64,000 bases of DNA from a virus (IMGVR_UViG_3300023215_003041), one strand, 5' to 3'; shown: positions 16,221-34,458, counted from the first letter of the stretch. The notes: generated by a model from the sequence alone, not told the origin. A program made the numbers and translations.

Positions 16221-16222
16221 CC

Positions 16223-17068: not shown

Positions 17069-17146
17069 CGTCGATTTCCAAATTGTAAGTTAATTACCGT
17101 GGTGGGGTATTCCCCACCAAGAAAATAGCCTAGTATTTATTCTCTC

Positions 17147-17359
17147 TTACTGTCCTTTGAAGGACTCATTAAGAAGATTCTCCCAGGTTAGGGTTAAGTT
17201 GTTTTGATAAAGAATTTTGTGTTGGATACCACTTTCAATTTCATAGCAAGCCGCACCGTTAATTGTGCCGACGGTTTTGCTTCGTCTAAAAGTAAGTCCT
17301 TGGTCTTTTGCCAGTTTACGGCACTCCTTTATAACTTCATTAGATGATAATTTTTGCAT
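17147..17359 (-). CDS. hypothetical protein (70 aa), separated from its SD by the insertion
   Basis: ATG 17359; the reconstructed empty site restores AAGGAAAATAAGATG. Confidence 0.65.
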   Translation of the reverse strand: MQKLSSNEVIKECRKLAKDQGLTFRRSKTVGTINGAACYEIESGIQHKILYQNNLTLTWENLLNESFKGQ

Positions 17360-17401
17360 CTTATTTTCGGGTATTCGGAAAAGAGTGTGTATTGACAAAA
17401 A

Positions 17402-17425
17402 TAGGCATTAGCTAAACTAATGCCT
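17402..17425 (-). terminator. hairpin downstream of aca2 (probable terminator)
   Basis: AGGCATTAG-CTAAA-CTAATGCCT followed on the minus strand by ATTTTT. Confidence 0.6.
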
Positions 17426-17432
17426 TGCTATA

Positions 17433-17792
17433 TCAAGATATAGTTTCCTCTTCACGCCACTTATCAGCCTCACTTTCGCAAAGCAAAGCGGTAGCCACTG
17501 ACTGAGCCAAGCGCCATTTTAATTCGTTCCCCGTACCGCCAGCGGTTTTATATTCATAAAATGAGTCAAAGTAGCAATAATTAGGATCGGCTTTATCAAA
17601 CTCTATTTGCAAGCGCTCTAAGCGAGTAAGGGCGAGCATTTGGATTACCCTAGAAACATCGTTTGGTATAGATCTATCACCCTTTTCCCATCGTTGCCAC
17701 GTTCTTGGCTCACACTCACCAATGAGTTGAGCTGCTTCACTCACTTCGAGGAACAATAAGCGTCTAAGCTGTTTTAGTTCGTTATTTGTCAT
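17433..17792 (-). CDS. aca2: anti-CRISPR-associated repressor Aca2 (HTH, DUF1870-like)
   Basis: MTNNELKQLRRLLFLEVSEAAQLIG...WQRWEKG...WRLAQSVA closely matches Aca2 as recalled; lies directly downstream of acrIF9. Confidence 0.88.
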   Translation of the reverse strand: MTNNELKQLRRLLFLEVSEAAQLIGECEPRTWQRWEKGDRSIPNDVSRVIQMLALTRLERLQIEFDKADPNYCYFDSFYEYKTAGGTGNELKWRLAQSVATALLCESEADKWREEETIS

Positions 17793-17835
17793 AATAAAAC
17801 TCCAAAATAAAAGGGGCTTATTAGCCCCAAGAAAA

Positions 17836-18042
17836 TTACTGGCAATCAACCCAGCGCTTGCCGTCCTCTTTATAAGCCAACCACAATCCATTTACTGTTT
17901 CTATACGCATTACAGTACCATGGAAACACTGATTTTTTGATGCAATACGCTTAGCTTGAGATAGTGAAGTTGTCTCGATTTGAGTGCCTTCACGTTCTGA
18001 ATTGATGTTTTGAACTTCTTTGATGATGTATGCAGTTTTCAT
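17836..18042 (-). CDS. acrIF9: type I-F anti-CRISPR protein AcrIF9 (68 aa)
   Basis: MKTAYIIKEVQNINSEREGTQIETTSLSQAKRIASKNQCFHGTVMRIETVNGLWLAYKEDGKRWVDCQ is near-identical to the Vibrio AcrIF9 sequence as recalled; acr-aca2 gene order. Confidence 0.9.
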   Translation of the reverse strand: MKTAYIIKEVQNINSEREGTQIETTSLSQAKRIASKNQCFHGTVMRIETVNGLWLAYKEDGKRWVDCQ

Positions 18043-18094
18043 ATGTATCTCACTTTCTTGAGTTGATTCGAACCAGTTCCGAACCGTTGAATAT

Positions 18095-18123
18095 ATTATG
18101 GTCGGATTCGCGACCGATTGCAA
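18095..18123 (-). promoter_or_regulatory. sigma70 promoter of acrIF9-aca2 with an inverted-repeat operator in the spacer
   Basis: TTGCAA-17 nt-CATAAT; spacer holds GGTCG-CGAATC-CGACC (18100-18115). Confidence 0.8.
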
Positions 18124-18248
18124 GTGTTAATTTGAAATTATTTTAACTTATCCGATACACACTCTTTTCCGAATACCCTTATTTTCCTTTTAAGTTAAAT
18201 TCTTTTCTAGCCGACGATCGTGGCCCGTGTTGGGGTGTTAGTTATTGA

Positions 18249-18695
18249 TTAATACTGAACTTCGATATCGTACTCATGAATATGAGCAACAGAACCGTCT
18301 GCAAATGTGATATTGATAGCGTCATTCTTGCCGCCCTCACTATCCTCCCAAACAATACCCTCCACCTTTACAACAGTTACATTATTACGAGTTGCAATGG
18401 CTTTGATTATGTCCTTATTCTTATCGCTCATTTCATGTGATAAGCCCGAAGCTAGAAAAGTATCGTTACCTTCATCTTTCTTAAAAGATACCGCTTGAGG
18501 CTGTTCACCCTCTGGGACCCCAGCGTATGAAAGAGCAATATCACTTAGTTCATCCAAATCCGTTTCAGAGTAAATTGCATTGTTAACTGCGTTAGATGCG
18601 GCTTTTTGTTCTTGCTCATCTGTATACACAAATTTATCAACGATTTGCTCAATAATGTCAGTAGTTACAGTGTTTCCGTTTACGATATTAGTCAT
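18249..18695 (-). CDS. acidic hypothetical protein (anti-defence candidate)
   Basis: 148 aa, D/E-rich; SD AAGGAAATC. Confidence 0.7.
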   Translation of the reverse strand: MTNIVNGNTVTTDIIEQIVDKFVYTDEQEQKAASNAVNNAIYSETDLDELSDIALSYAGVPEGEQPQAVSFKKDEGNDTFLASGLSHEMSDKNKDIIKAIATRNNVTVVKVEGIVWEDSEGGKNDAINITFADGSVAHIHEYDIEVQY

Positions 18696-18779
18696 TTTGA
18701 TTTCCTTTTTTTAAGTTAAATTCCTTTATGGCCAATTCACCGGCCATAAAGGCTATAATGTGTTACTCAGATAGTTTTA

Positions 18780-19133
18780 TCAATCCTGCGTTACTTCCTG
18801 CGTCGCCTCCCAAGCCTCAAGCACTCTCAGGCGCAGCGCTTCTGGTATCTCTATCTTACGACTACAGCTCGTGATATATGTAAGTGGAATCATATTTTCG
18901 GTAAATACGAATAGAGCGTTTTCTCCACGGCGGCGAGCCATAGCAGCACCAGCCATATCCTTCGGGGTATCGATAAATACCACCTCCGCATCGATATCCT
19001 TTAAGTGTGCTTTTAAAAACACCACCAAGCTAGGGTTCAGCAAACTTATGTAGGCTCGAACGCAATGAGGTTCGAACGTGTTATTGATTTTTCTTACAAT
19101 TGCTTTTTTGTCCTTGTCTGAAATATTCATCAC
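18780..19133 (-). CDS. hypothetical protein
   Basis: ORF coupled to the upstream gene. Confidence 0.65.
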   Translation of the reverse strand: MMNISDKDKKAIVRKINNTFEPHCVRAYISLLNPSLVVFLKAHLKDIDAEVVFIDTPKDMAGAAMARRRGENALFVFTENMIPLTYITSCSRKIEIPEALRLRVLEAWEATQEVTQD

Positions 19134-19567
19134 TCACCATCCCATGCCCAGTTACGTGCCTCGGGGCACACTTCTTCACGGGATACGGCATTGTCGGTGT
19201 AATTGCTAAACCATTCGGTCAGCGCATCTTCGTCCAGTTCGGCTAGCGCGTCCCAGTCATAGACTGTGGTGCTGTGGTGCTCCAAATAGTACCCGTGTTC
19301 GGCAATATACTCTTTACAGTGGTCAATCCATTCTTCCCAGTCTGAAATCCAGTCCATTTCTTCAAACCCTATACCCCAGCTACCTACGGGGTTCCCATCT
19401 ATACTGTGCAACGTGTCATTAAGCCCTTCAATGGGGGCGCCGGATTCAAGACTACCAATTACTTCTTTAAGTAATCTTACAATTTCCCAAGTGGCATTCT
19501 CGGTTGTATCAAAAGCCGCATCACCACTCTCGATATTTAATTCAAATTCTGCATTTGCTATTCGCAT
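19130..19567 (-). CDS. acidic hypothetical protein
   Basis: ATG 19567 after the leader; D/E/W-rich. Confidence 0.7.
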   Translation of the reverse strand: MRIANAEFELNIESGDAAFDTTENATWEIVRLLKEVIGSLESGAPIEGLNDTLHSIDGNPVGSWGIGFEEMDWISDWEEWIDHCKEYIAEHGYYLEHHSTTVYDWDALAELDEDALTEWFSNYTDNAVSREEVCPEARNWAWDGE

Positions 19568-19623
19568 CGTCAATCTCCAAATTTTAGTTAATTAAAAAGT
19601 GGTGGGGTGTTCCCCACCAAAGG

Positions 19624-20241
19624 TTAAGCTACATACCGAACAATTTTTGTGTAAACCTTACACGTGTTAAAGGTGTCACTAGGTAACGTCTCTACTTCCT
19701 CATAGCTTGGGTGGTCGAAAGACGTTGGTACCACTGCAACTAGAACCCCTGTGAATCGGAGTAACTTGCGTGCCGCCTCCATATGCGCTTTTACCTTTTT
19801 GAAAGGCGGGTTCATTATGATTTTTTCATAGCGATACCCGTTGTTGTAACGCGCCTCGGCCCAGCTTAGAAAATCTTCGTGGAAGATACGCGGGGTAACC
19901 CCTTCACAATCCCCCATAGCAAAACGAGACAGCAACGATTGAACTAAGGAATTGTCTTGTTCCACAACGGTTATTAGGTCCGCGTCGTGACCCCCAGCTT
20001 TTACCGCTTGAACCAAATTCCCAGTCCCCGCCGAAGGCTCAAGAACCTGATCGTCCGGTTCAAGCTCTAAGAGTTCCACCATACGTTCGGCCACCGCACT
20101 TGGGGTAACGTGACATTCCGTTGAGGCATGCACAATTACCGGTTTCGGGGTGTCCGTAAACTCGATAGGCTCGAGCTCGACTTTCGAGGGAGGTGCTACG
20201 AATTTAGGCTTGTTGGGACGGATATAAATTGACTTATCCAT
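19624..20241 (-). CDS. N6-adenine-type methyltransferase (small domain)
   Basis: VLEPSAGTG motif I, IIMNPPF motif IV. Confidence 0.85.
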   Translation of the reverse strand: MDKSIYIRPNKPKFVAPPSKVELEPIEFTDTPKPVIVHASTECHVTPSAVAERMVELLELEPDDQVLEPSAGTGNLVQAVKAGGHDADLITVVEQDNSLVQSLLSRFAMGDCEGVTPRIFHEDFLSWAEARYNNGYRYEKIIMNPPFKKVKAHMEAARKLLRFTGVLVAVVPTSFDHPSYEEVETLPSDTFNTCKVYTKIVRYVA

Positions 20242-21632
20242 TAGGCGTTCTCCACTTCCTTAGTCACATACTCAATCGAGGTTGAGTTCGGCAACGCATG
20301 ACGTTTCGAATCGGTGAGATAAACCGCCACCCATTCACCCTTCCAATAGTCCGCACCCTCGGGGACAATTCGACAAACCTTAGCTCGGAACTGGCCACAT
20401 ATACTAGGCCTAACACCACGCTGCTCGCTGTGCATTGCTGAATATTCCGCTTTCGTCATTGAGGTAATAGGATACTTATTAACATTACCCCACATTTTCA
20501 CCGTTATGCTTTTTACTTCTTCCGGTGACAGGTTAAGAATTGGCGGGGCCTTTGGCTTAGGCGCCGGAACTTCATACCCAACGTTATACATCAAGTCGCG
20601 CCAGTCTTTCGTATCCATTTCGAGCGTTGACCCAGTGCCAATATGAATCGGTAAGTCGTTCTCACACTCGACAATCCAACCAAAGTCGGACTTCGTGGCT
20701 TTGGGTTTATCCGCGCCATGGGTTCTAAGGAACGTCTGTAATACGGGGCCCGTGACTTTACCGGTGTAGTAATCGACTTCACCTAATTGAGCCCGTTCGT
20801 AAGTAAGACGGTTCAAGATATGGTTTATCTTGCGGTGTAACTTCGGGTCATTCTTACGCTTCTGGCCCAGCGCGATATTATCGTCGATAATTTCAGCCAG
20901 CGGTTTACTCTCGTTACGAATATGGTCTAACGTATCTGGAACACAAATATCCCAACGAAAGTTCGCGATTTTGAAAGCGAAAGCCCGTTGGCGTTCCGCA
21001 TCCTCGAAACCCTTACAGCGTTCCCAAAGCGAAAGACAATCCCCCGCGGCATGTAATTCTCGTTGCTTCTTACGCAAGTCCGTCAGTAGGGTTTTAATAC
21101 GTCGCTCGATAACATCAGGGCGGTTTTTGTGATTAGCATGTGCAACGGTACCCATCATCTTCCAGTTCCAATAACGAACCGCTGAACTCGCTTCCTTGGC
21201 GCGTTCCTCGTTACGCTCTTGCGCTTTCTGGGTCTTTTCCATTTTCCGCTGGCTGTGGTGGCCTAATAGAATAGGTTGATCACCAAACGACATATTGTTC
21301 GCCGCCGCACTGAAACCCCGCGCTTCATCCGCTCGCTTCTCAGCCAACGCTTTTAGTCGCTCAGCTTTGGCCTCGGCACGTTCCGCCATCGTGGTATCTT
21401 CGGGCTCGATCGTACCAGCCAAACGAATACATAAATCTTCGGCTTCGGGGGACCACGAGGGTTTAACAAACAGCTCTTGCTTAGGCGCCCAACCAAAACC
21501 TTGAGCTTTCAGCTCGTCGTAGAGGTCTTTGTCTAGGCGATTGAGGGGGTAGATACGCAACTTGTTGTCCTCAGGGGAGTAAGTGGCGCGTTCGATATCT
21601 TCGTGCTTTGCCGCAATAGTTTGATTAGTCAT
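20241..21632 (-). CDS. DUF3560-domain protein
   Basis: MAERAEAKAERL...GDQPILLGHHSQRK; typically paired with a methyltransferase on phages and plasmids; ATG 21632 after the leader. Confidence 0.75.
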   Translation of the reverse strand: MTNQTIAAKHEDIERATYSPEDNKLRIYPLNRLDKDLYDELKAQGFGWAPKQELFVKPSWSPEAEDLCIRLAGTIEPEDTTMAERAEAKAERLKALAEKRADEARGFSAAANNMSFGDQPILLGHHSQRKMEKTQKAQERNEERAKEASSAVRYWNWKMMGTVAHANHKNRPDVIERRIKTLLTDLRKKQRELHAAGDCLSLWERCKGFEDAERQRAFAFKIANFRWDICVPDTLDHIRNESKPLAEIIDDNIALGQKRKNDPKLHRKINHILNRLTYERAQLGEVDYYTGKVTGPVLQTFLRTHGADKPKATKSDFGWIVECENDLPIHIGTGSTLEMDTKDWRDLMYNVGYEVPAPKPKAPPILNLSPEEVKSITVKMWGNVNKYPITSMTKAEYSAMHSEQRGVRPSICGQFRAKVCRIVPEGADYWKGEWVAVYLTDSKRHALPNSTSIEYVTKEVENA

Positions 21633-21688
21633 ATCGTCAATTTCCAAATTGTAAAGTTAATTAAAAGCGGTGGGGGACTCCCCACCGG

Positions 21689-21916
21689 TTAGTTCTCGTC
21701 TATAAAGTCATCAGGGTCAGCAGTCACTTTCAACTGCACTTCAACACGCTTACCTTTGTGTTCGATTGTGGCTAACAAAACTTCAACGTCCACGCCATTT
21801 TCGTCGATATAGTCTTCGGTTAACTCACCAACAAGATTGTTAAAATGCTCGGACTCCGAACAAATTATTTGTCCGGCACTCACATCGTATCCAGGGTTTT
21901 CACAATGGTTTTTCAT
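21689..21916 (-). CDS. small acidic hypothetical protein
   Basis: 75-aa ORF. Confidence 0.6.
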   Translation of the reverse strand: MKNHCENPGYDVSAGQIICSESEHFNNLVGELTEDYIDENGVDVEVLLATIEHKGKRVEVQLKVTADPDDFIDEN

Positions 21917-22716
21917 GCCGCCACCTGTTTAGTTCTGCCATACGTTTTATGGCGGAGTTCTCGATACCCGCTACTAACCAAAATATTCTTAGTCTCGGAA
22001 GTGATAGACCACGTAGAACAGAACTCGGTGCGTAACCCGATACCCTGATAGTCTTTACGTGGAGCCCCAGCATTTATCATCCGGTCAACCACGAGCAAGT
22101 CGTGGGGGTAGCCTTTAACGAACCATTCGATTTTATTGCCAAATTCGGTCAATATATCTTCGAAAAACAACATGCCGGTATCTCTGGCCAGCGTGTCTTT
22201 AGCAATGACAAAACTGTATAGCGAAGCCAGGAATACATCCGCGTTTGCAATATCGCCACCCCAGCGCCAGTCGTTGTCTGGGTGTCGAGGGTCACGGGAC
22301 TGGCTTAAAATTGCTCTGTGAGGGTTAGCACTCAACATTAAGTCGGTTAAAGCTTTCGGTAGACTGACACCTCGGGGGACAATAAATTTCTTACTGCTTT
22401 GATGGAGCTTTACGCGCCACTTGCGAGCCGTGCGGTGGGCTAAGTCAATAAGCTTTTCACTCATCATTTGTAGCTTTTCTTCCCAGCTTAAAACTAAATA
22501 CTGGTCGGAGAATACGCTAACGGCTTGTTTGAGCTGGAAGTCAAAATCGTGTCTTAGCTTGTCGTGAAGGTCTTCAACGGTACCGGTACCATCTGAACCA
22601 AATCGGGAGGTGTTATCTTCTAAGAACTTCACAAAGCGGGGTTGCGTAATCGCGTCAGCAATTACAAATAGCATCGTGGCCGTAGCCTGTTTGTTGATAC
22701 GTTTAATATCCGTCAT
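21913..22716 (-). CDS. hypothetical protein
   Basis: ATG 22716 after the leader. Confidence 0.7.
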   Translation of the reverse strand: MTDIKRINKQATATMLFVIADAITQPRFVKFLEDNTSRFGSDGTGTVEDLHDKLRHDFDFQLKQAVSVFSDQYLVLSWEEKLQMMSEKLIDLAHRTARKWRVKLHQSSKKFIVPRGVSLPKALTDLMLSANPHRAILSQSRDPRHPDNDWRWGGDIANADVFLASLYSFVIAKDTLARDTGMLFFEDILTEFGNKIEWFVKGYPHDLLVVDRMINAGAPRKDYQGIGLRTEFCSTWSITSETKNILVSSGYRELRHKTYGRTKQVAA

Positions 22717-22775
22717 ATCGTCAATTTCCAAATTTTAAGTTAATTAAAAGTGGTGGGGAACACCCCACCATTACA

Positions 22776-23054
22776 CTACGCTTTTTCAGGGCGATCGAAC
22801 TTCTCACCGCAATAACAGCAATGGCTCGCAAGTATAGTGATAGAATCTTTCTTAAGATTCTTTTGCGGCGTACCGTCACGCTTCAAAGGACGGTAAGAAT
22901 ACTCAATCTTTGGGCTGGTTGGGGCGTATTCACCTTTGGCCAGCATATACGCTCGGCCTTGCCAGTCGGCTTCAAAGTCTTGAACGTTGTCCGGCAATTG
23001 CTCTTTAACATGCTCGGTTACTTTTTCCATTGTTTCTTCAAAACAGTTACACAT
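22776..23054 (-). CDS. hypothetical protein with Cys motifs (CNC...CCYC)
   Basis: 92-aa ORF with the leader. Confidence 0.7.
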   Translation of the reverse strand: MCNCFEETMEKVTEHVKEQLPDNVQDFEADWQGRAYMLAKGEYAPTSPKIEYSYRPLKRDGTPQKNLKKDSITILASHCCYCGEKFDRPEKA

Positions 23055-23072
23055 ATCGTCAATTTCCTAATT

Positions 23073-23324
23073 TTAGTTGTTTGCCATAGCGACTTGATCG
23101 CTATCATAAGTCGTAGACTCGTACCAAGCGTAATGCTTGAAACAATCGCTACTATAATCACGCTGCCAAACCCGACCGTTAGCATCTTTAATTAAGTACG
23201 GTATTCGACGACGTTTACACATAGCATCAGCGTGTTCTTGCGCTTTTTCTATCGACGGAGCGAAGAAATAGCTAGAACGCTGAACACCATTGTATTTATC
23301 AGGGTAACGTAGTTCGTATTTCAT
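23073..23324 (-). CDS. hypothetical protein
   Basis: 83-aa coupled ORF. Confidence 0.6.
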   Translation of the reverse strand: MKYELRYPDKYNGVQRSSYFFAPSIEKAQEHADAMCKRRRIPYLIKDANGRVWQRDYSSDCFKHYAWYESTTYDSDQVAMANN

Positions 23325-23653
23325 CCCACTACCTCACTTAACCCCAATTCCTCAGACGTTACCGTCTCTACCCAACCATCATCGTAATCAAGGAACCCGA
23401 TTTTGAATTCTGTGCCACCTGAACTCTGGTAACTAACCGTACCTTTTGGGTCTAACTTTCGTAGGGTGTCCGCCAACGAACTTAAAGACAGACCGCCAAA
23501 ATTTGGGGCCGGTCGGTATATCCCAATTTCGTCTAAACCTACCGTTAAAAGTACACCCTCGAAAGTTTCGATTGGACTCACCGAGCCCAGATGCGCATTG
23601 TTAAAAACACACTCCTGACTCGCCACAATGTCTAACAGTTCTTCAACTTTCAT
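23321..23653 (-). CDS. hypothetical protein
   Basis: 110-aa coupled ORF. Confidence 0.6.
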   Translation of the reverse strand: MKVEELLDIVASQECVFNNAHLGSVSPIETFEGVLLTVGLDEIGIYRPAPNFGGLSLSSLADTLRKLDPKGTVSYQSSGGTEFKIGFLDYDDGWVETVTSEELGLSEVVG

Positions 23654-24547: not shown

Positions 24548-24569
24548 CGTCAATTTCCAAATTTAAGAG

Positions 24570-25115: not shown

Positions 25116-25135
25116 CGTCAATTTCCTAAGTTAAT

Positions 25136-26594: not shown

Positions 26595-26604
26595 GTGCCG
26601 CTCC

Positions 26605-26832: not shown

Positions 26833-26857
26833 AGGTGTTTCTCCTTCTTATCGTCGA

Positions 26858-27118
26858 TTAATCGTTAGGTTCTAGGTCTAAATACAACTGCCAGCGGAAG
26901 CCGGCCGAGGTTACAAAAAACAACAGTTGGCCCGTTTGGTCGCAATAAGCCTCATCGGTGCAGGGCTTGAAATCACAACCCCGAAAATAAATCTTTTCAA
27001 ACTCGGCTATTGCCGTAACCCTGTCGTGATAAATCTTCAGGGGCCAGAAACTAAGAGCCTCATTATCCGGTCTACGACACACAATCATATGTACGTTCTT
27101 ATTCTTCTTCTTAGGCAT
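26858..27118 (-). CDS. hypothetical protein
   Basis: 86-aa ORF. Confidence 0.55.
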   Translation of the reverse strand: MPKKKNKNVHMIVCRRPDNEALSFWPLKIYHDRVTAIAEFEKIYFRGCDFKPCTDEAYCDQTGQLLFFVTSAGFRWQLYLDLEPND

Positions 27119-27986
27119 CCGAGTAATCCTCCAATCGTTCGTTCCAGTCCTCGGTGTAAAGCGAAAAGCAGATTGCTTGTAAGGCCGTATCGTCAGACAG
27201 ACTCACAGCTTTACCAGCCCCACCACAATCGGCATCGAGTGCTCGACTCAATTCATCAGCATCACGGATAGTCAGAACCGCAATAAACGCGGGTTCCTCA
27301 GGATCATCAGGCTCAACCCAAGTCAGATTTCCCATGATGTAGTCGTGAATAGTGTATTTACCTTTTACGAAGTTCATCCAACCCCATTCCGCATCATCTA
27401 ACACGTACTCAATAGGGGTACCCGAGCTTAACTTCTCGGGTATCTCATAGAACGCGATATCTTTATCCGCCAATATCTGCGGTGAGGTGTATCGGTGAGG
27501 TTGTGGCTGTCTTCTTTCTTTTACTCCCACGCGGCCATTTAACAACAGGTCGAGCATATGCTTCATAAACGCCAAAGCGTCGGCCGCGGCAGGTTCCACC
27601 TCTAGTAGATGATTGAACCGTTGGGATTCAGGAGGAAGATACGTTTCTGCCGCCGCGTGTCTTAGAAAGCGTGACCCCGCGACAATCGCATCCGCGACCT
27701 TGCCTATTTCATGGTGTAAAGCCCAATAAACACGCTCCGCCGCCATTCTCGAGCAGAATTCCTCGGTGTCGATACCTATGAAATTCTGAATTTCTGGTGT
27801 TACGGCCCCATAGCCAACGACACAAGCCGGAGTACCGCAGGTGTGAATATCTTTCGCGTCATTAGCTACCATTTCACTGTCAAAATAAACAACCATATTC
27901 AAAGGCAACTCAGCCTTAACCACTTCCTCCATGGTTTCTATTAAGAGTTGAAGCAGTGGAAAAGGGTTTTTCTGTTCAGTTTTCAT
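27111..27986 (-). CDS. hypothetical protein (paralog of 29884..30357)
   Basis: Shared IHTCGTPACVVGYGAV motif; leader. Confidence 0.7.
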   Translation of the reverse strand: MKTEQKNPFPLLQLLIETMEEVVKAELPLNMVVYFDSEMVANDAKDIHTCGTPACVVGYGAVTPEIQNFIGIDTEEFCSRMAAERVYWALHHEIGKVADAIVAGSRFLRHAAAETYLPPESQRFNHLLEVEPAAADALAFMKHMLDLLLNGRVGVKERRQPQPHRYTSPQILADKDIAFYEIPEKLSSGTPIEYVLDDAEWGWMNFVKGKYTIHDYIMGNLTWVEPDDPEEPAFIAVLTIRDADELSRALDADCGGAGKAVSLSDDTALQAICFSLYTEDWNERLEDYSDA

Positions 27987-28029
27987 ATCGTCAATTCCCA
28001 AATTTTAGTGGTGGGGAACTCCCCACCAG

Positions 28030-28593
28030 TTAGTAAAAGCCCAGTTCACCCTCGCTATCGTCAATCAACCAACGACGCATCGGGAACGTGATATAAATAC
28101 CGCGATTCGCACCGGCGCTTTCACCCCAGAACCAATAGTTCGCGTCAACAAACCCGTCGGGTTTTAACTCGATAGAATCAAGCTTCTCGTGCCAATGGAA
28201 GTAGCCCCCAGACACACTCATACTTAATGCGCCAGTCTCACCCACCTTAGGCCGGTGAAGGTGAGGCCCAGCGTTCATACAAATCGCTCGACTTGACCCA
28301 TACTCACGGCAGATAAGCGCCTTTTCGTAAACCCGCCCATTCTTACAAATAACCCGAACACGATGCCCAGGTATTGCACGGGCATTTACGTTGCTGCAAG
28401 TCTGCAACGCTTGGCGATACATATACCAGTTATCCAGAACCGCTCGGTTGAAAGAGCCAACATAGGTAAGGTTTGAGCGTACAATCTTGAATAGGTCGCA
28501 CAACTCGGTAAACCCAAAACTACCCCTTGGCACACGATAGCTATTCAAAATACGCCCCGTCTCATCTACCGCGATATCGTGAAAAAGACTCAT
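28030..28593 (-). CDS. hypothetical protein, possibly DUF4121-like
   Basis: SVSGGYF...YWFWGESAGANRG; family assignment tentative. Confidence 0.6.
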   Translation of the reverse strand: MSLFHDIAVDETGRILNSYRVPRGSFGFTELCDLFKIVRSNLTYVGSFNRAVLDNWYMYRQALQTCSNVNARAIPGHRVRVICKNGRVYEKALICREYGSSRAICMNAGPHLHRPKVGETGALSMSVSGGYFHWHEKLDSIELKPDGFVDANYWFWGESAGANRGIYITFPMRRWLIDDSEGELGFY

Positions 28594-29078
28594 ACGTCCA
28601 CAGCCTCCGCCCACGCTTTTTCGAACTCGGCTTTCGAATAGCCGCGAAGGCCACCAAAATCGTAACGATGTAAAATCTCGTCTTTAGTGAACTCGCAATC
28701 GTTGATTTGATAGCAAAGCCGACGGGTAACGTCATACATCAACACACCTCGTCGCGCCCCTCCCGAGAGGGCAATATACTCATACTCGACAGCACGGATA
28801 ATCTGACCCTCCGGCCCGTAGTGACGACCCGTGTTCCACTCCATACGGCGCATTTTTTCAGGTTCGGGTTTCACTTCCTCGGGCCAGCAAGACCACGATG
28901 TTTCCGTCGGGCCGTAACCCTTCTGTCGGTCTATCTCACACGTAGGCATATCCGCAGCAACATGATTGCCATAGGCTTCTGCAATCTCATAATCACAGGC
29001 CTTCACGTTGGGTAAAACAAGCTGTCGGCCCGTGTCGCTTTCTTCAAGCACGATTTTAAATTCTTTCAAATCATTCAT
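28590..29078 (-). CDS. hypothetical protein
   Basis: ATG 29078 after the leader. Confidence 0.65.
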   Translation of the reverse strand: MNDLKEFKIVLEESDTGRQLVLPNVKACDYEIAEAYGNHVAADMPTCEIDRQKGYGPTETSWSCWPEEVKPEPEKMRRMEWNTGRHYGPEGQIIRAVEYEYIALSGGARRGVLMYDVTRRLCYQINDCEFTKDEILHRYDFGGLRGYSKAEFEKAWAEAVDV

Positions 29079-29138
29079 CGTCAATTTCCAAGTTTTAAGT
29101 TAATTTCAGTGGTGGGGAACTCCCCACCAGTTTCGCCG

Positions 29139-29327
29139 CTACTTCATTCGGGCTTTTGACGCACGTTCAGCCTCGATACGCTGCTGTATTTCCTCGCGGT
29201 GTACAGAAACTTCTCGGGGAGCATTAACACCCACGCGAACTTGATTCCCATGTACCCCCAGGATAGACACCGTAACATTGTCACCAATAACAACAGCTTC
29301 ACCGATACGTCTGGTTAGTATTAACAT
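29139..29327 (-). CDS. csrA: carbon storage regulator CsrA/RsmA homolog
   Basis: [47 protein letters not shown] is the canonical CsrA signature. Confidence 0.95.
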
Positions 29328-29352
29328 TTACTTATTCCTTTTAAGTTAAGAT

Positions 29353-29541
29353 TTACTGGTTTTTATTCGATGATTTCGGCTCGTCAGACTCAACAAAGTC
29401 ACAATAAACCGGCCCTTCATCGGAGGCCATAAAATCAATTTCAGGGTCGGTTGCAAACTCGCAGTGCTCAACGCTTTTGTAACCATCCCCGAGCAGAGTC
29501 CCGCCACACTTTTTACAAACGGGACGGTGGGATTCAAGCAT
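29353..29541 (-). CDS. small Cys-containing hypothetical protein
   Basis: ATG 29541 with GAGG SD; CKKC motif. Confidence 0.55.
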   Translation of the reverse strand: MLESHRPVCKKCGGTLLGDGYKSVEHCEFATDPEIDFMASDEGPVYCDFVESDEPKSSNKNQ

Positions 29542-29887
29542 GTTCCACCTCGCATTCTTCGTCGTTAGGGATAGGCCAATACCCAAAATCAGAACCATCC
29601 CCCTCGTTAGCACCAAAGTAATAACCCTCCGGCGCTTGGTGTTCTAAAATATCGAACAGTTCTTCAAGCTTGTACCCCGCTTCTTCACTGTCCCACCATT
29701 CGCTCTCGTCGCCCTCATCCACCACCCAAGCGGGGATAAAACCGAAAGGCCCCAAAATCAATTGGGTATACTCAGCATCCGCATATCGACGGACAGCCTC
29801 GAGGAACGCGGGGATTAAATCTTGGCGGCGGTGGGTAGCCTGAATAAGCGTACCCAGTTCAATATCAATATCTTGGTCGTTTTTCAT
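29534..29887 (-). CDS. acidic hypothetical phage protein
   Basis: QDLIPAF...GYYFGANEGDGSDFGYW. Confidence 0.7.
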   Translation of the reverse strand: MKNDQDIDIELGTLIQATHRRQDLIPAFLEAVRRYADAEYTQLILGPFGFIPAWVVDEGDESEWWDSEEAGYKLEELFDILEHQAPEGYYFGANEGDGSDFGYWPIPNDEECEVEHA

Positions 29888-30357
29888 ACGTTTTGTTCCT
29901 CCGCCTCAAGTTCACGAACCTTAAACGCCAGCACATGCTTCATGTACTTCAATGTCTCCGCTGGAGAAGGTTCATCCTTGTGAAGATGCTCAAAATCCAG
30001 GTCGGTCTCTGGTAGTTCGTCCGCCGCATGTAGGTGTCTTTCGTAAGCTATGCTACAAAAGATTGAATATCCCAAATCGCCAAGTTCATCTAGCAAAATC
30101 TCCGCAATATCCTCAGCGGTTTCGGCAGCACGAAAATGGAGGATATCAACCTTTAGGTGTTTTTGAATTTTAGGATCTACCGCACCATAACCAACGACAC
30201 AGGCAGGGGTCCCGCAAGTGTGGATATCCTCCGCTTGGTCTGCGATTCCATAGTCGTAGTAGAAGTCCTTCATATGGAACGGCAACTCAAACGAAACCAC
30301 TTCTTCCATCGTGTCAATCAAGAGACACAATAAAGGGAATTTTTCAGACGCGTTCAT
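29884..30357 (-). CDS. hypothetical protein (paralog of 27111..27986)
   Basis: FPLL.LLI.TMEEVV...IHTCGTPACVVGYGAV. Confidence 0.65.
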   Translation of the reverse strand: MNASEKFPLLCLLIDTMEEVVSFELPFHMKDFYYDYGIADQAEDIHTCGTPACVVGYGAVDPKIQKHLKVDILHFRAAETAEDIAEILLDELGDLGYSIFCSIAYERHLHAADELPETDLDFEHLHKDEPSPAETLKYMKHVLAFKVRELEAEEQNV

Positions 30358-30842
30358 AGCAACCCCCGTTGAGCCATGGATACACAAGGGCAACCCTGAC
30401 CATTGCCCACGACAACATGGTCGAGTAACGCCACATTGATAACCGTCAGCGCTTCTCGGATTTCTCGGGTAATAGCAATATCAGCCTGACTCGGGGTAGG
30501 TTCGCCTGAGAGGTGGTTGTGCGCCAAGATTACCGCCGCAGCATTGTACTCAAAAACCTTGCGGATAATCTCGCGAGGATAGACCGCCGACGAATTAATC
30601 GTCCCCTCAAACAGAATTTCACTGCCCAACACACCATGCTGAGTGTCAAGAAAGATACACAAGAAACGTTCACGCTCACGCCCCACCAATTGCAAGGCGC
30701 AATAATCCATCGCCGCCCCCGAGTCGTTTAACTGTTTACGGCTGTAGAAGTTGGGTTGTTTCTCACGAAGGATATTTAATGCACGAGTGATAGCCCGTTT
30801 TTCGGCAGGGCTGTAAGTGCCACAAGCGGTTAGATTAGTCAT
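30354..30842 (-). CDS. radC: RadC-family JAB/MPN protein
   Basis: ERFLCIFLDTQH, GTINSSAVYPREI, ILAHNHLSG, SQADIAIT, LLDHVVVG. Confidence 0.9.
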   Translation of the reverse strand: MTNLTACGTYSPAEKRAITRALNILREKQPNFYSRKQLNDSGAAMDYCALQLVGRERERFLCIFLDTQHGVLGSEILFEGTINSSAVYPREIIRKVFEYNAAAVILAHNHLSGEPTPSQADIAITREIREALTVINVALLDHVVVGNGQGCPCVSMAQRGLL

Positions 30843-30966
30843 ACGTCAATTTCCAAATTTTAAGTTAATTTCCTAAAAAACTGCGTTACGAGTCGTAAAT
30901 ACACATCAAGAGTGTCGATTCTCGCAACGCAGCGCAACACAGCGAAGACTTCTCGCTTAATTAGTC

Positions 30967-31362
30967 CTAACCTATAGCCTTCTCCATTGCACCGGCTGAG
31001 GATGCGATAGAGGACGCGCAAGAAATCCCGCAATTGAACCCAAATTCCGCAATGGTTTGCACCAGTTGAAACGAGATATCCAGTTCCACCGCAAGGCGTT
31101 CCATTCGACGATGCATTTCGCCAAGGTCGGCGGTGCCAGGCAATGCCTCAGGTTTACGATACAACCCGATTAACATTTCGATTTGTTTGGCTTTCATGCC
31201 CATCACGGTATCCATGACGACACGTTGCGTTTTCGCGAGGCTATCGCCAAGCGGGGTGTTCACGGCTCGAGGGGTGGGGTTAGAGTCAGTACCGGCAGTA
31301 GGCTCATGGGGTATTGCGTCGGGTGAGGTGTGTTCGGTTGAACGGTTAGCGTTCGAGTTCAT
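30967..31362 (-). CDS. hypothetical protein
   Basis: ATG 31362 after a leader variant. Confidence 0.65.
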   Translation of the reverse strand: MNSNANRSTEHTSPDAIPHEPTAGTDSNPTPRAVNTPLGDSLAKTQRVVMDTVMGMKAKQIEMLIGLYRKPEALPGTADLGEMHRRMERLAVELDISFQLVQTIAEFGFNCGISCASSIASSAGAMEKAIG

Positions 31363-31410
31363 AGCGTCGATTTCCTTCAAGTTAATTTCAAGGGTTGCCC
31401 CTTAAGTCGA

Positions 31411-31440
31411 GTTATACGGTGGGGAGTTCCCCACCGTCAA
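31411..31440 (-). promoter_or_regulatory. sigma70 promoter whose spacer is the 18-bp palindrome
   Basis: TTGACG-GTGGGGAACTCCCCACCG-TATAAC. Confidence 0.7.
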
Positions 31441-31923
31441 GTAAAAATTCAATTTCACCTGAAAAATCACATTTACCCTGTGTCTCCAAGTGTTTTTCGT
31501 AAACCGGTCGCGACAGTGGTGCACTGTCCAAAATCCAAATTTCTCCACACGCAAAAGTCGTTTGGTGGATCACTGCGCCTTGCAGCAAAGAGCAAGGAGG
31601 ATTTCGCTTAATACTTTTATTTAAACCTTAAGTATGTTTTAAAAAGTAACGAAGCTTTTTAAAAGTTTAAGTTAGTATTTTTGTTCCCAGTAAAATATAT
31701 AAATGTACATTATATAACGATAGTTTGTGGGAACATTTTTTGAAATAGGGTCGTAGCCCAATAAACCTACGGCATTGCGACTGGGTGCCGCGGTTACCTC
31801 GGTTACGCGTAACTGTACAAAATTTGCACAGCTACAGGCCGCATTCTTCCGTTTCGAGATTTGCGAAAAATGGCCAAGAAAGTTTATGGGAACAGAAAGT
31901 CTAAGTATTTGTATTTTAGTTAT

Positions 31924-32226
31924 TTATTTTAGTCTTAATCTTTCTTTTGAGGCTTTCGTGTTAGTTCTGTCAAAAAGTTTATGGGAACACGCGTTAACTG
32001 GGCTTGGATTCGCCCTTTGAGTGTCTGTTTTTGCTTTTCTAAGTAGAGTGGCGGCCTCACAAACTAGTAGGATGTTATGCTGCTCAGGGTAGGTTTCAGG
32101 GTCTAGGTTTGAGAGTTGTTCTAGCGTAATACCACCCATTTCAGGTAACCCAATGATGTAGTTTAACCCCCCGTATTCGAGTTCAAATAACCCCGTCGTT
32201 TTCTGATAATTTACACGTAATGCCAT
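31924..32226 (-). CDS. hypothetical protein
   Basis: Conserved leader before ATG 32226. Confidence 0.6.
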   Translation of the reverse strand: MALRVNYQKTTGLFELEYGGLNYIIGLPEMGGITLEQLSNLDPETYPEQHNILLVCEAATLLRKAKTDTQRANPSPVNACSHKLFDRTNTKASKERLRLK

Positions 32227-32499
32227 CGTCGATTCTCCAGTTTTTTGCCTCTTGTGGTGGGGAGTTCCCTACCACTTAGGCGGTTAAATGTGCCACCCTG
32301 TAAGCCTGAAAATGCTTTACAAGGTTTGGCACGGGTTCTATATTCTCATGCGAGAAGCTTGGATAGAGGGTTTATATTTGAAATCGGCGCTGCTCCAATT
32401 TCCGCAATGTCAAACCTCAAGCCGAATTTTTCGTTCTTTTTCTTAGAACGATAATCCACCCGCAAGCCCAAATCATTCTACTAATTAGAATGTTCAAGC

Positions 32500-32712
32500 C
32501 TACTTTTCGTTACCTGGGACTTTTTTCGCGGCTTCACGATTGGCTTTAGCGCCAAAAACCACCAGCAAAAGCAGTGGCACCCCTGCAAAGCTAGACACAT
32601 CCACCAGCGCCATCATTTCACGGCCATAAACCACCAGCGCGAGACCCGCCACCAGCAAAAACAGGTGAATAAACGCCCCCAGTACCATTACTATTTTTCT
32701 ACCTAATTCCAT
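32500..32712 (-). CDS. small membrane protein
   Basis: Two hydrophobic segments; ATG 32712 after the leader. Confidence 0.65.
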   Translation of the reverse strand: MELGRKIVMVLGAFIHLFLLVAGLALVVYGREMMALVDVSSFAGVPLLLLVVFGAKANREAAKKVPGNEK

Positions 32713-33132
32713 CGTCAATTTCCTTCTCGTTTCACGTTTCTCGTTTCTTGGTTTGCGGGTTGGTGGGGAGTTCCCCACCAGCAACCCTTTAGTGTAATCT
32801 CGCTAAAATTTCTTGAACACGCGGATCTTCTAATACCCCTTCCATTTCCACGTTATACATAGTTGTTACCCCAAGGTGTTCCTGGGGGGAGCCCCAGTTA
32901 AACCGAGCGATACAACGAAGGTTATGCTCCCAGAATCGCTTAAGTTGCGCCGTAGTCCCAACCACTTCGGTTTGTTTTCGACCTTCACCAGCGGCACTAC
33001 CATAAAGAGTTTGCTTTATAAAAAAGCCCTTACTTTGTCGAGCTAAATTCTTAGGTATTTTCATCGTCAATTTCCTTCTCGTTTCACGTTTCTTGGTTTG
33101 CGGGTTGGTGGGGAGTTCCCCACCAGCAACCC
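32710..33132. repeat. 78/71-bp direct repeats (32710-32787, 33062-33132) bracketing one gene
   Basis: Identical apart from one 7-bp unit; each contains palindrome plus leader. Confidence 0.92.
32789..33064 (-). CDS. hypothetical protein (91 aa)
   Basis: ATG 33064 after the leader (MKIPKNLARQ...). Confidence 0.65.
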   Translation of the reverse strand: MKIPKNLARQSKGFFIKQTLYGSAAGEGRKQTEVVGTTAQLKRFWEHNLRCIARFNWGSPQEHLGVTTMYNVEMEGVLEDPRVQEILARLH

Positions 33133-33261
33133 CGCGACAGTGAGCCGTACCGCGTGACTCAAATTCTCTTTGCGCGCAAATTACCCCACGTGCTAACCCC
33201 TCAACCCTAGAGCCAAGAGCCACACCGCACACGTTATAAAAAAAAAAACCTACGTACATGT

Positions 33262-33299
33262 ACACACACACACACACACATACACACACACACACACAC
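33262..33299. repeat. (AC)n dinucleotide microsatellite next to an A-run
   Basis: About 19 AC units with one T interruption, preceded by A11 at 33238-33248. Confidence 0.95.
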
Positions 33300-33360
33300 C
33301 CACGCCTATACGCGGCTATACTGGTTTTTCCTAGCTGTCAACAAAAATTTTGCAAAATTA

Positions 33361-33398
33361 AAAAAGCGATTAAACCCCGTAAGGCTTAATCGTTTTTT
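33361..33398. terminator. bidirectional intrinsic terminator
   Basis: AAAAAGCGATTAAACCCC-GTAA-GGCTTAATCGTTTTTT. Confidence 0.7.
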
Positions 33399-33437
33399 CA
33401 ATTTGTAATGGTGGGGAACACCCCACCACCTACCCGC

Positions 33438-34265
33438 TTACTTTTCCATCTGTGCTAGGATATCGGCGCGGACTGATTCAGCGAGCTTGTGCATTTCACC
33501 CCCCACCATAGCGCGGTATTTTTTCGGTAGACCACCGGCGTCCAGTTGTTCCATGTGATCATTCACTAGCGCTTTCACATGGCTTTCAACTTTTGCAAGC
33601 ATTTGGGTTAATGCCTTGTGCACGTTGGTATCTGCGGCGCGTTGTGCCTCGCCCTTGTCGGCATTATCCTTAGCATTGGCCGTTGTGCTTTTTGGCGTTT
33701 CAGCCTTGGTTTCAGCCTTGGTTTCTGCCTTGGTTTCATCCTTGGTTTCAGCCTTGGTTTCAGCCTTGGTTTCTGCCTTGGTTTCATCCTTAGGCAAATA
33801 ACCCCCTAAAAATTCGAGCCATTCTTTTCTGTTAACAGGTGCGCCCATCTCGCCGTATATATCAGCGTCCAAAATGCGATCGGCTAGCTGTGCAAAAGTG
33901 CCTTTAAATTCCAGCGCCTTAAGGCTGTCAAAAAACTTGGTGAAATATTGGCGATTCTCGCTTACATATTTTGCGTAGTCCTTCCAGAAACCTTTCGCCT
34001 GTTGATATAAGCGACTAGTGTCACGGTTGGTACGGGTGCGCTGGTTAGCCGGTACGCCGTATAAATCTAAACAGGTGGCGGTATCAATTCCTTTTTCCAT
34101 GTTGTGCGCCGTAGCAATGCAAGCAATAGCCATTTTCACAGCGGGGACGCGTTTAGCGTTTTTATCCGCCGTAGTTAACACGGTAGCGAATTGGTTTAAG
34201 TCGAATGCCTTAGGTGCAGTGGTGGCAGTGGTGTTTTTTGGTGCTGGTTTGGTTGATGTAGTCAT
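33438..34265 (-). CDS. hypothetical early protein with ETKA repeat linker
   Basis: 275 aa; 12-bp tandem repeats about 33698-33793; first gene after the 34960-34320 noncoding region. Confidence 0.75.
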   Translation of the reverse strand: MTTSTKPAPKNTTATTAPKAFDLNQFATVLTTADKNAKRVPAVKMAIACIATAHNMEKGIDTATCLDLYGVPANQRTRTNRDTSRLYQQAKGFWKDYAKYVSENRQYFTKFFDSLKALEFKGTFAQLADRILDADIYGEMGAPVNRKEWLEFLGGYLPKDETKAETKAETKAETKDETKAETKAETKAETPKSTTANAKDNADKGEAQRAADTNVHKALTQMLAKVESHVKALVNDHMEQLDAGGLPKKYRAMVGGEMHKLAESVRADILAQMEK

Positions 34266-34458
34266 TTGTCGATTTCCTTAAAAGTTAATTGTTAGTGGTG
34301 GGGACTTCCCCACCGGTTAGAGCAGTAAAACGGGTGTTGCTCGAACGTGATTCACTATATAAGGGGGGGTGGTTTTTATGCAAGAAAATGGCTTGATATA
34401 GTGGGGTTGCCCCAACACTCCACCTGAAAAATTTTTGGGATTTTGGGAGGTAGTATCT

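Follow-up and report, generated by a model that had tools for sequence, protein, structure and literature searches.

The 64,000-nt stretch of DNA analysed here (the window) comes from a temperate, roughly 80-kb marine siphophage. Between 17101 and 34314 it holds a block of accessory genes on the minus strand, punctuated by a palindrome, GGTGGGG-N4-CCCCACC. An exact search of the whole window recovered 11 copies, against a chance expectation of 0.00 (100 shuffles), and a mismatch-tolerant search added one more with a single mismatch, at 32256–32273. The repeated palindrome described in a previous sequence-only reading is therefore confirmed, as 11 exact copies plus one imperfect copy rather than 12 exact ones. 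None of the 12 falls inside any plausible gene, and neither search found copies in the replication or structural modules, in agreement with the earlier statement that all are intergenic and restricted to 17.1–34.3 kb. Every copy either follows a stop codon or lies within a 5′ UTR, and a GGAAATYGACG leader with a start codon lies downstream of 11 of the 12 at 22–53 nt (median 32), which bears out the placement between a stop codon and the leader of the next gene. Read in the sense direction, the loops are AACT (n = 4), AGTT and TGTT (n = 2 each) and AACA, AATA, AGTC and AAGT (n = 1 each). As had been noted, the centres thus occur in both orientations (AACT/AGTT and AACA/TGTT), and in seven of the 12 copies the arms can be extended to 8 bp, leaving a 2-nt core. 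Two sites previously called degenerate forms, at about 26183 and 34401, differ from each other: the former is a palindrome of a different type and the latter a hairpin with a 5-bp stem. The features are listed below.

17101–17118, minus strand: palindrome copy 1 with sense loop AATA, flanked by a stop at 17147 and a start at 17068; predicted RNA fold with an 8-bp stem and a 4-nt loop
18723–18752, minus strand: unrelated 13-bp hairpin at an equivalent position (stop, hairpin, AATTTAACTT leader)
19601–19618, minus strand: palindrome copy 2, sense loop AACA, 5 nt past the stop at 19624, followed by CUUUUU and the leader
21669–21686, minus strand: palindrome copy 3, sense loop AGUC (search and RNA fold)
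22717–22745, minus strand: example of the shared leader, AATTAACTT, AAAATTT, then GGAAATTGACGAT(AT)G; the substrate of observed crossovers
22752–22769, minus strand: palindrome copy 4, sense loop UGUU (search and RNA fold)
26184–26204, minus strand: another type of palindrome (G5-A-GG-AATT-CC-C7), likewise placed between stop and leader
28010–28027, minus strand: palindrome copy 5, sense loop AGUU, with a short leader of 23 nt
29111–29128, minus strand: palindrome copy 6, sense loop AGUU, directly past a csrA-like gene
31418–31435, minus strand: palindrome copy 7, sense loop AACU, occupying the spacer of a sigma-70-like promoter
32256–32273, minus strand: palindrome copy 8, the imperfect one, mismatched A-C in the sense strand
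32762–32779, minus strand: palindrome copy 9, within a direct repeat of about 75 bp (palindrome, GAAACG-type heptamers and leader)
33107–33124, minus strand: palindrome copy 10, in the second unit of the direct repeat of about 75 bp; in a 5′ UTR with no gene immediately upstream
33341–33315, minus strand: TTGACA promoter-like site, downstream of the terminator at 33367–33392
33367–33392, minus strand: canonical intrinsic terminator, 11-bp stem and U6, 18 nt past the palindrome at 33410
33410–33427, minus strand: palindrome copy 11, past the stop of the gene at 33438–34265, followed by the canonical terminator and lacking the start leader
34297–34314, minus strand: palindrome copy 12, transcriptionally the first, 5′ of the first accessory gene, with no gene immediately upstream
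34402–34414, minus strand: small degenerate hairpin, UGGGG-CAA-CCCCA with a 5-bp stem, upstream of the block

The leader represents a genome-wide start sequence, GGAAATYGACGATG, that occurs 26 times (up to three mismatches) against 2.8 expected; the sequence AATTAACTT (up to one mismatch) lies downstream of seven of the 12 copies. This start leader is not specific to the palindrome. It precedes about 25–30 genes on both strands, including those for the portal and major head proteins, and the motif is conserved across the phage clade. An inverted repeat with arms of 7–9 bp and a spacer of 0–4 nt is found upstream of about 10 of the 26 leaders. RNA folding predicted the same hairpin for all 12 copies, a 7–9-bp G-C stem closed by a 4-nt loop, with an energy of about −15 to −16 kcal/mol, and left the leader and start region unpaired.

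Relatives of this phage, including the cultured Pseudoalteromonas phage KB12-38, lack the palindrome sequence of the window and bear palindromes of their own at equivalent places, often upstream of orthologous genes. The arms read GGGGGAA-YR-TTC(C/T)CCC in G001-5, GGGGGCA-YR-TGCCCCC in G006 and GTGGGGA-S-TCCCCAC in G007; KB12-38 carries a perfect 18-mer, CGGGGTAACGTTACCCCG, and further forms occur in L060 and L059. For eight of the 12 window copies, orthologues of the gene downstream are preceded by the relative's own palindrome, and at the junctions orthologous to copy 4 this holds in all five close relatives. The palindrome at 26184–26204 resembles the type used in related lineages, and the orthologous junction in G001 bears the G001-type palindrome; the genes adjoining the hairpin at 18723–18752 have no counterpart in relatives. 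Copies are alike inside each genome and the arms switch jointly between lineages, with the distance from G-run to C-run ranging from 3 to 8 nt. The stem is G-C-rich in all lineages, in genomes of 42–49% G+C. The clade is temperate, with an integrase in all five relatives searched, two of which are proviruses. In a distant relative, Achromobacter phage JWF, varied U-tract terminators are annotated in similar gaps.

Covariation between lineages accompanies this positional conservation. Over 56 sites, 82% of cells were paired compared with 67% after shuffling (a value reached in 0 of 500 shuffles), the percentage being inflated because the sites of the relatives were found with palindromic search patterns. 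The covariation score was 0.364, compared with 0.138 for shuffled and 0.08–0.15 for slid controls. Arm exchanges among the 56 sites include GC/UA and AU/CG/GC, and a copy in G007 carries a compensatory double change, GTGCGGA/TCCGCAC. The commonest arm defect in relatives is a sense-strand G-U (8 orthologous loci, compared with 2 for A-C), which occurs with either orientation of the centre. In one column pair, G-U was seen 12 times and other non-pairs 3 times, and two flank changes between copy 33410 and the near-identical variant L054 both yield G-U. Taken over all lineages, the excess of G-U amounts to no more than a trend (roughly 12 compared with 4–5), and gene conversion makes the copies non-independent. 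The imperfect copy at 32256–32273 is a perfect palindrome in L054. Complementarity often extends to within 0–2 nt of the centre, and the base pair formed by columns 11 and 14 is A-U in 50 of the 56 sites; symmetry so nearly complete is not needed by an RNA hairpin and speaks against an RNA reading.

Near-identical variants from marine metagenomes reveal deletions, replacements and one insertion with joints at the hairpin–leader units. In variant X17 the unit at 21650–22712 is deleted, with a joint from 21627 to 22712 through 23 shared nucleotides of leader. Variants missing one unit of the repeat of about 75 bp have joints from 32709 to 33062 (32 shared nucleotides, in a natural variant) and from 32737 to 33076; a further joint runs from 17096 to 18222, and variant X11 carries an insertion of about 1 kb at 19586–19596, by copy 2. 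The gene shuffling proposed by the sequence-only reading is therefore real, but the crossovers map to the leader: the mapped joints share 10–32 nt of leader/start sequence and not the palindrome.

We give an even chance to the reading in which the palindromes are transcribed RNA stem–loops that act as leaky attenuators or 3′-end barriers and as leader insulators, kept uniform by recombination through the leader. We infer a function at the RNA rather than the DNA level, as an attenuator or stabiliser. The palindromes would be the DNA form of stem–loops in long leftward early transcripts, each forming within a 5′ UTR or directly behind the stop codon of the gene upstream and followed by an unpaired A/U-rich leader and the shared start region GGAAATYGACGATG. 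Such a hairpin would serve as a structural punctuation mark, at most a leaky attenuator because most copies lack a U-tract, and mainly as a barrier capping the 3′ end of the upstream cistron after cleavage of the A/U-rich leader; it may also shield the next start region from upstream pairing. The hairpin-plus-leader units would recombine with one another, so that intervening genes are gained, lost or swapped and the copies stay alike, and a lineage would eventually substitute the hairpin sequence at all sites, with the arms changing in concert. The unrelated hairpins at 18723–18752 and 26184–26204 in equivalent gaps support a role for structure rather than sequence, as do the varied terminators of JWF and the attenuating stem–loops of T4-type PeSL cassettes. 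Because relatives keep the places of the hairpins, each lineage with its own sequence, the palindromes look like a promoter-less variant of known phage hairpin–leader gene cassettes and not like a protein operator. Of the explanations offered earlier, the alternative of weak terminators or RNA-stabilising stems comes closer to this evidence. One metatranscriptome contig of depth 88 ends at 17118, the border of copy 17101, and the gene downstream is covered to a depth of 7.4, in assembled contigs that may contain DNA and where the break at 17118 could be a strain branch; a DNA contig spans the site.

Ordinary rho-independent termination is quite improbable as the function of these sites. The G-C-rich stems would suit it, as would the terminators annotated in similar gaps of JWF and the CUUUU(U) that follows three of the 12 copies, all three of which pass a terminator scan. 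However, nine of the 12 have no U-tract, at least five T within 8 nt past the stem are found at only 0–25% of copies in nine genomes, and twelve efficient terminators in a 17-kb operon would silence the distal genes. At copy 33410 the hairpin is not a sufficient terminator, because a true one comes after it, an order also seen in relatives L002, L010 and L008; that this copy has a separate canonical terminator downstream also weighs against the RNA stem–loop reading. The palindrome itself serving as a recombination or cruciform site for cassette exchange is the least credible proposal, and we regard it as very improbable. HSP ends between relatives are enriched 2.5–5-fold within 40 nt of palindromes relative to the length expectation, and a loose end in variant X11 coincides with the border of copy 33410, but the enrichment disappears against the proper control: palindrome junctions are broken no more often than leader-bearing junctions without a palindrome. 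The shared sequence at the mapped joints likewise points away from the palindrome.

Other readings involve recognition by a protein. The palindromes could be double-stranded DNA sites for a lineage-specific dimeric phage protein, an operator or stoperator-like roadblock whose specificity co-evolves with its sites and possibly defines immunity types, which we consider rather unlikely. The extreme uniformity within a genome and the lineage-specific sequences at orthologous places would fit, and in Cluster A phages stoperator motifs and their repressors are reported to show the same uniform-within, lineage-specific pattern (PMC6550527). The temperate, integrase-bearing clade, the symmetry reaching almost to the centre and the several small HTH proteins encoded, at 15888 (plus strand), 13301 (minus), about 12201 (minus) and 17433 (minus), point the same way. 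So does copy 31418, which fills the 18-nt spacer between TTGACG (31440–31435) and TATAAC (31416–31411), hexamers with 10 of 12 matches, an arrangement retained in L054; its position exactly within a promoter spacer also tells against an RNA reading. Yet this is the sole promoter location among about 107 sites in nine genomes, the remaining window copies matching promoter hexamers at no more than 8 of 12 positions. Half-site spacing that varies from 3 to 8 nt among lineages would be unusual for homologous dimers, and a DNA-binding protein accounts poorly for G-C-rich stems in every lineage despite the base composition of the genomes, for unrelated hairpins in equivalent gaps, for a common arm defect with a fixed orientation relative to transcription, and for replication and structural modules devoid of sites. 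Nor does the divergent control region of the lone opposite-strand HTH gene (15888) contain such a palindrome; it has A/T-rich repeats only. Orientation-independent spacers, previously taken to favour a DNA site, do not discriminate, because a hairpin loop is free to vary or flip. Alternatively, an RNA-binding protein or endoribonuclease of the phage, specific to its lineage, could recognise the transcribed hairpin and either cut the polycistronic early RNA into units of one gene or control the translation of each unit, which we judge unlikely. This proposal shares with the preferred stem–loop reading the RNA-level evidence of covariation, folds and G-U bias, and the full set of sites shifts together between lineages. 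Moreover, copies 33410 and 32256 lack the standard leader and still keep exact arms, which counts against the RNA stem–loop reading: this is hard to explain by leader-driven conversion alone and hints at sequence-specific recognition. However, Pfam and PHROGs identified no RNA-binding nuclease in the block, the csrA-like gene is present in the window and not in the relatives, and the unrelated hairpins in equivalent gaps indicate that the sequence is not essential. More speculatively, each lineage might encode a protein that reads its own hairpin or palindrome. Such a protein might act in RNA processing or translation, or block the DNA in the manner of a stoperator, and its specificity would change in step with the dozen sites; we offer this as a tentative possibility. 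If true, the accessory block as a whole would bear an 'address code' particular to each lineage, perhaps with a link to immunity among related prophages.

Of the known systems, the T4-type PeSL cassettes and the mycobacteriophage SAS/ESAS elements come closest. PeSLs (promoter-early stem–loops) are cassettes found in T4-type myoviruses (Arbiol et al. 2010, PMC2839356; Comeau et al. 2014, PMC4122927), whose stem–loops, often polyG then polyC, were shown to attenuate transcription (PMC2839356). Like them, the units described here are repeated in the intergenic gaps of a variable block rich in accessory genes, combine a stable stem–loop (often polyG then polyC) with an A/T-rich stretch, a Shine–Dalgarno sequence and a start codon, and serve as sites of homologous exchange through which intervening genes are gained or lost. 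PeSLs differ in having a strong sigma-70-like early promoter, for which the median of 32 nt from hairpin to start leaves no room here and of which hexamers are found at only one of the 12 copies. Their hosts are lytic T4-type myoviruses rather than a temperate siphophage-like genome, and the hairpin here is uniform per genome and swapped between lineages at orthologous sites.

SAS/ESAS are start-associated sequences and extended inverted repeats of Cluster K mycobacteriophages (Pope et al. 2011, PMC3203893), whose function is left open in PMC12699233. Both systems have a conserved asymmetric motif, about 13 nt long and spanning the ribosome-binding site, at the starts of a subset of genes, an inverted repeat before about half of the motifs, a repeat consensus that differs by sub-lineage at positions conserved with gene families, and inverted repeats limited to the non-structural half of the genome. 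Here, however, the arms are 7–9 bp and 0–4 nt apart rather than imperfect, 17 bp and 4–13 nt apart, the hosts are Gammaproteobacteria, the start leader also precedes structural genes, and the sequences are unrelated. The stoperators of Cluster A mycobacteriophages are likewise many copies of one short site, set in short gaps close to the stop and start codons in a temperate phage genome, with a motif that varies between lineages. They are asymmetric 13-mers that share one orientation and bind a monomeric repressor, and they are distributed over both genome arms and the early promoter (PMC6550527, PMC9283540). The sites here are instead palindromic, with centres in both orientations, and confined to one block. 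Intercistronic hairpins and REP-type elements, such as the C(UUCG)G hairpins of T4 and the malE-malF REP of E. coli, protect the upstream mRNA. The palindromes resemble these in being stable stem–loops between cistrons, without a U-tract, of the kind associated with differential stability of the upstream message, and differ in forming one repeated sequence, a co-evolving set tied to a fixed translation leader.

The window covers most of a roughly 80-kb tailed-phage genome and encodes a terminase, portal, major head protein, primase, helicase, DNA polymerase and ligase, together with a 2006-aa protein of tape-measure size. Its closest cultured relative is Pseudoalteromonas phage KB12-38 (terminase identity 53%). 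Because a tyrosine integrase is present in all five IMG/VR relatives searched, two of which are proviruses, the clade is temperate. A 372-aa protein (3646–4767, minus strand) carries both a complete RdgC domain (E = 4e-81) and an FtsK gamma domain (E = 6e-23), a fusion unusual for a phage replication module; in bacteria, the latter is a winged-helix domain that recognizes KOPS. The palindromes occupy the accessory part of the leftward early region, whose genes include an Aca2/YdiL-type regulator, N6- and C5-DNA methylases, RNase H, a CsrA homologue, RadC and many unknowns.

The window holds 11 exact copies of GGTGGGG-N4-CCCCACC, against zero expected from 100 shuffles, and a mismatch-tolerant search recovered a twelfth at 32256 with one mismatch. 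The sequence-only reading had reported 12 copies of an intergenic palindrome confined to 17.1–34.3 kb, and this is confirmed as 11 exact copies and one with a mismatch. All lie between 17101 and 34314, none within a plausible gene and none in the replication or structural modules. Both degenerate forms that it had reported are also present:

Degenerate forms
26184–26204, minus strand: palindrome of another type
34402–34414, minus strand: small 5-bp stem

In the minus-strand sense, each unit runs from the upstream stop codon through 0–30 nt to the palindrome, then an A/U-rich stretch (AATTAACTT, AAAATTT; present in most copies) and a start region, GGAAATYGACGAT(AT)G, which follows 11 of the 12 copies. 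The stem lies a median of 32 nt from the start codon (range 22–53 nt). Copies 33107 and 34297, named like the others by start coordinate, sit in 5′ UTRs without a gene directly upstream. AATTAACTT presumably resembles the T7 gene 10 'epsilon' enhancer, a likeness for which a literature search yielded no usable support and to which we give no weight.

The start region is not specific to the palindromes, as it precedes about 25–30 genes on either strand, the portal and major head genes among them. In the form GGAAATYGACGATG it is near-invariant at about 26 sites (3632–55841) and is kept in three other lineages (G006, G007 and G009) with terminase identities of only 58–61%, a conservation that far exceeds the Shine–Dalgarno requirement. 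One leader copy (55719–55733, minus strand) falls within the tail operon of the plus strand and is not followed by a start codon. We rejected the leader's TAAAAT/TACAAT as a −10 box with the palindrome 3′ arm as −35, because the same leader stands upstream of genes located midway in the late operon (the major head gene, for example), such a transcript would lack its GGA ribosome-binding site, and the box is absent from G006. The GGA that forms the ribosome-binding core of this universal start leader is also the recognition core of CsrA, and the block encodes a 61-aa CsrA/RsmA homologue (29139–29327, minus strand; Pfam E = 1e-21) with no counterpart in the seven relatives compared.

A near-identity search of the palindrome block against 50,697 phage records gave no match, and a scan of IMG/VR for the exact palindrome plus leader found none; relatives were recovered through their terminase and primase proteins. 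The window palindrome is absent from all five close relatives (terminase 87–89% identical), each of which has a palindrome of its own, in 10–13 copies that occupy equivalent gaps. Further palindromes occur in more distant lineages and in other metagenome contigs.

Palindromes by lineage
Window: GGTGGGG-N4-CCCCACC
Five close relatives (G001–G005): GGGGGAA-YR-TTC(C/T)CCC
Other lineage G006: GGGGGCA-YR-TGCCCCC
Other lineage G007: GTGGGGA-S-TCCCCAC
Cultured phage KB12-38: CGGGGTAACGTTACCCCG
Other contig L060: GGGGGGGAAATCCCCCC
Other contig L059: CGGGGAATTCCCCG

For eight of the 12 window copies, the orthologues of the downstream gene in close relatives bear the relatives' own palindrome, so the place is conserved and both arms have been replaced together. 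Across 56 centred sites from the four lineages with even-length palindromes, 82% of cells were paired compared with 67% after shuffling (none of 500 shuffles reached the observed value), a percentage inflated by the palindromic patterns with which the relatives' sites were found. The dominant intergenic repeat of each lineage is nevertheless a palindrome, independently of that search. The covariation score at these sites was 0.364, compared with 0.138 for shuffled sites and 0.08–0.15 for slid partners, and GC/UA and AU/CG/GC exchanges were seen. Within the G007 genome, one copy shows a double compensatory change.

The sequence-only reading had offered weak terminators or RNA stems as an alternative to a DNA site. 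As an RNA stem, acting as a leaky attenuator or barrier, this alternative comes nearer to the favoured reading; plain terminators are very unlikely, because a U-run follows only three of the 12 copies and copy 33410 has a separate canonical terminator 18 nt downstream. Among nine genomes, 0–25% of copies have at least five T in the 8 nt after the stem. The order of palindrome then terminator is kept in three other lineages, and at copy 33410 a TTGACA promoter-like site comes next. Downstream of this site, a (TG)n tract of about 50 nt followed by T11 (33230–33300, minus strand) sits in the 5′ UTR that it shares with palindrome 33107; the place was flagged as a repeat with reads seemingly cut. 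A sigma-70 promoter inside the unit was rejected for all copies but 31418. N4-type hairpin promoters served by a T7-type RNA polymerase were likewise rejected, the polymerase being absent and the 831-aa protein being a primase.

One third of the sampled words from 27000–35000 are present in a marine metatranscriptome. Among its contigs over 16000–35000, one with a depth of 88 extends from 18699 to 17118, ending at the first base of copy 17101; the downstream-gene contig past this copy has a depth of 7.4, and a DNA contig from another sample spans the copy unbroken. This stop is suggestive only, as these are assembled contigs, the library may include DNA, and the break could stem from a strain branch. 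The deepest contig coverage in the same stretch (113, at 16000–16633) covers the 3′ portion of the HTH_3 gene on the opposite strand (15888–16220) and the convergent gene end; on these contigs it would be consistent with expression of a repressor-like gene from marine prophages.

The two orientations of the central nucleotides had been taken to favour a double-stranded DNA site, but they do not discriminate, because a hairpin loop may also vary or flip. Folding gives all 12 copies a stem of 7–9 bp and a loop of 4 nt, at about −15 to −16.5 kcal/mol, with the leader and start region left unpaired. In nine G001-type genomes, the commonest arm defect is a sense-strand G-U (eight orthologous loci, compared with two for A-C), found with either centre orientation, and the same locus switches repeatedly between G-C and G-U. 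Both changes that distinguish the flanks of copy 33410 from those of the near-identical variant L054 lead to G-U, and the outermost pair in G007 is G-C, G-U or A-U. Over all lineages the G-U tally of about 12 against 4–5, counted on non-independent copies, is a trend rather than proof. The fold and these defects point to the transcribed strand. Lineages differ in the distance from G-run to C-run (3 to 8 nt), and all of them keep a G-C-rich stem (genomes 42–49% G+C). Equivalent window gaps hold other hairpins (18723–18752, unrelated, and 26184–26204). A distant relative, Achromobacter phage JWF (NC_029075.1), has varied canonical U-tract terminators annotated between the genes of the corresponding leftward operon, unlike the uniform hairpins without a U-tract in such gaps of the marine clade. 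The varied spacing, retained stem, unrelated hairpins and JWF terminators argue for structure over sequence.

Other features point away from that reading. The arms are often complementary to within 0–2 nt of the centre, for which an RNA hairpin has no need; exact arms are retained in copies without the standard leader; and copy 31418 forms the 18-nt spacer of a TTGACG/TATAAC promoter, the sole case among about 107 sites, kept in L054. Recognition of the palindromes by a specific DNA-binding protein would be a more novel outcome, and we consider it unlikely. The lone HTH gene on the opposite strand (15888) has an A/T-rich control region in which no such palindrome occurs. The conserved first gene (33438–34265), which has palindromes on both sides in all lineages, gave nothing usable as a candidate binder in Pfam, PHROGs, a PDB sequence search or the Atlas. 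A specific RNA-binding protein that recognizes the hairpins, also a more novel outcome, seems less probable still. An Rfam search of the window returned no family match. The best reading, to which we give roughly an even chance, is that the palindromes are transcribed intercistronic stem–loops punctuating the early accessory operon. They would act there as leaky attenuators or 3′ barriers and might insulate the adjoining leader, recombination through which could keep the copies uniform.

Joints between the window and near-identical variants from three DNA metagenomes bear on the earlier proposal of cassette shuffling:

Variant joints
21627→22712: deletion; the 23 nt common to both sides are two leader copies
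32709→33062 and 32737→33076: deletions removing one palindrome-plus-leader tandem-repeat unit
17096→18222: replacement beginning 5 nt from copy 17101
19586–19596: insertion of about 1 kb adjoining copy 19601
22713, 24540, 25136, 30844 and 33410: loose ends

Several of these fall at leaders without a palindrome. In IMG/VR relatives, aligned-block ends are enriched near palindromes relative to sequence length, but a nucleotide-level test found palindrome junctions broken no more often than leader-only junctions. A gene-adjacency test was saturated, with crude ORF calls and nearly every junction broken in some relative. The proposal is therefore supported in part, for leader units, and palindromes as breakpoint markers were dropped. 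The exchange substrate is the conserved leader and start region with the palindrome carried along, which offers a simple explanation for the likeness of copies within a genome. At 32710–33132, one small gene lies between two direct repeats, each of about 75 bp and made up of a palindrome, GAAACG-type heptamers and a leader; three metagenome variants with the single-unit form make this an observed site of cassette gain or loss. Separately, an 818-bp segment with the Aca2/YdiL-type gene (17360–18177) is precisely absent from contigs of two samples, X4 (DNA) and X19 (RNA library), at a joint (17359→18178) with 9 shared nt. The absence fits a small non-autonomous mobile element with a natural empty site; the Aca2 domain is confirmed and the Acr identity putative.

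The same positions with at least six hairpin sequences, their arms changing together, constitute an unusually clean natural experiment, in which structure versus a specific binder, and the concerted change of about a dozen dispersed sites, become directly testable. One member of the clade, KB12-38, is available in culture, and two of the relatives reside as prophages in isolates with sequenced genomes. The hairpin–leader units also mark gene boundaries and true start codons, and flag an exchange block of anti-defence and host-control genes (the Aca2-type regulator, two DNA methylases, CsrA and RadC).

Among known systems, the promoter-early stem–loop (PeSL) cassettes of T4-type phages run from a stem–loop, often polyG and polyC in turn, through A/T-rich sequence and a sigma-70 promoter to a Shine–Dalgarno sequence and a start codon; they are transcription attenuators as well as mediators of gene shuffling (PMC2839356, PMC4122927). 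The window units have all these parts except a promoter, which would not fit in the space available. The start-associated sequences and extended inverted repeats (SAS/ESAS) of Cluster K mycobacteriophages, whose function is still unknown (PMC3203893, PMC12699233), likewise place a motif at gene starts, have an inverted repeat ahead of roughly half of these motifs, show a repeat consensus that differs by lineage and keep their positions with the gene families; the mycobacteriophage repeats have greater length and wider spacing. Stoperator sites are asymmetric, keep one orientation and are spread across the genome (PMC6550527). The general kind of element is already familiar, and the hairpin-plus-leader cassette idea of PeSL and SAS/ESAS is extended here to temperate marine siphophages of Gammaproteobacteria; what is new is the lack of a promoter and the way in which orthologous sites turn over in concert, with compensatory changes.
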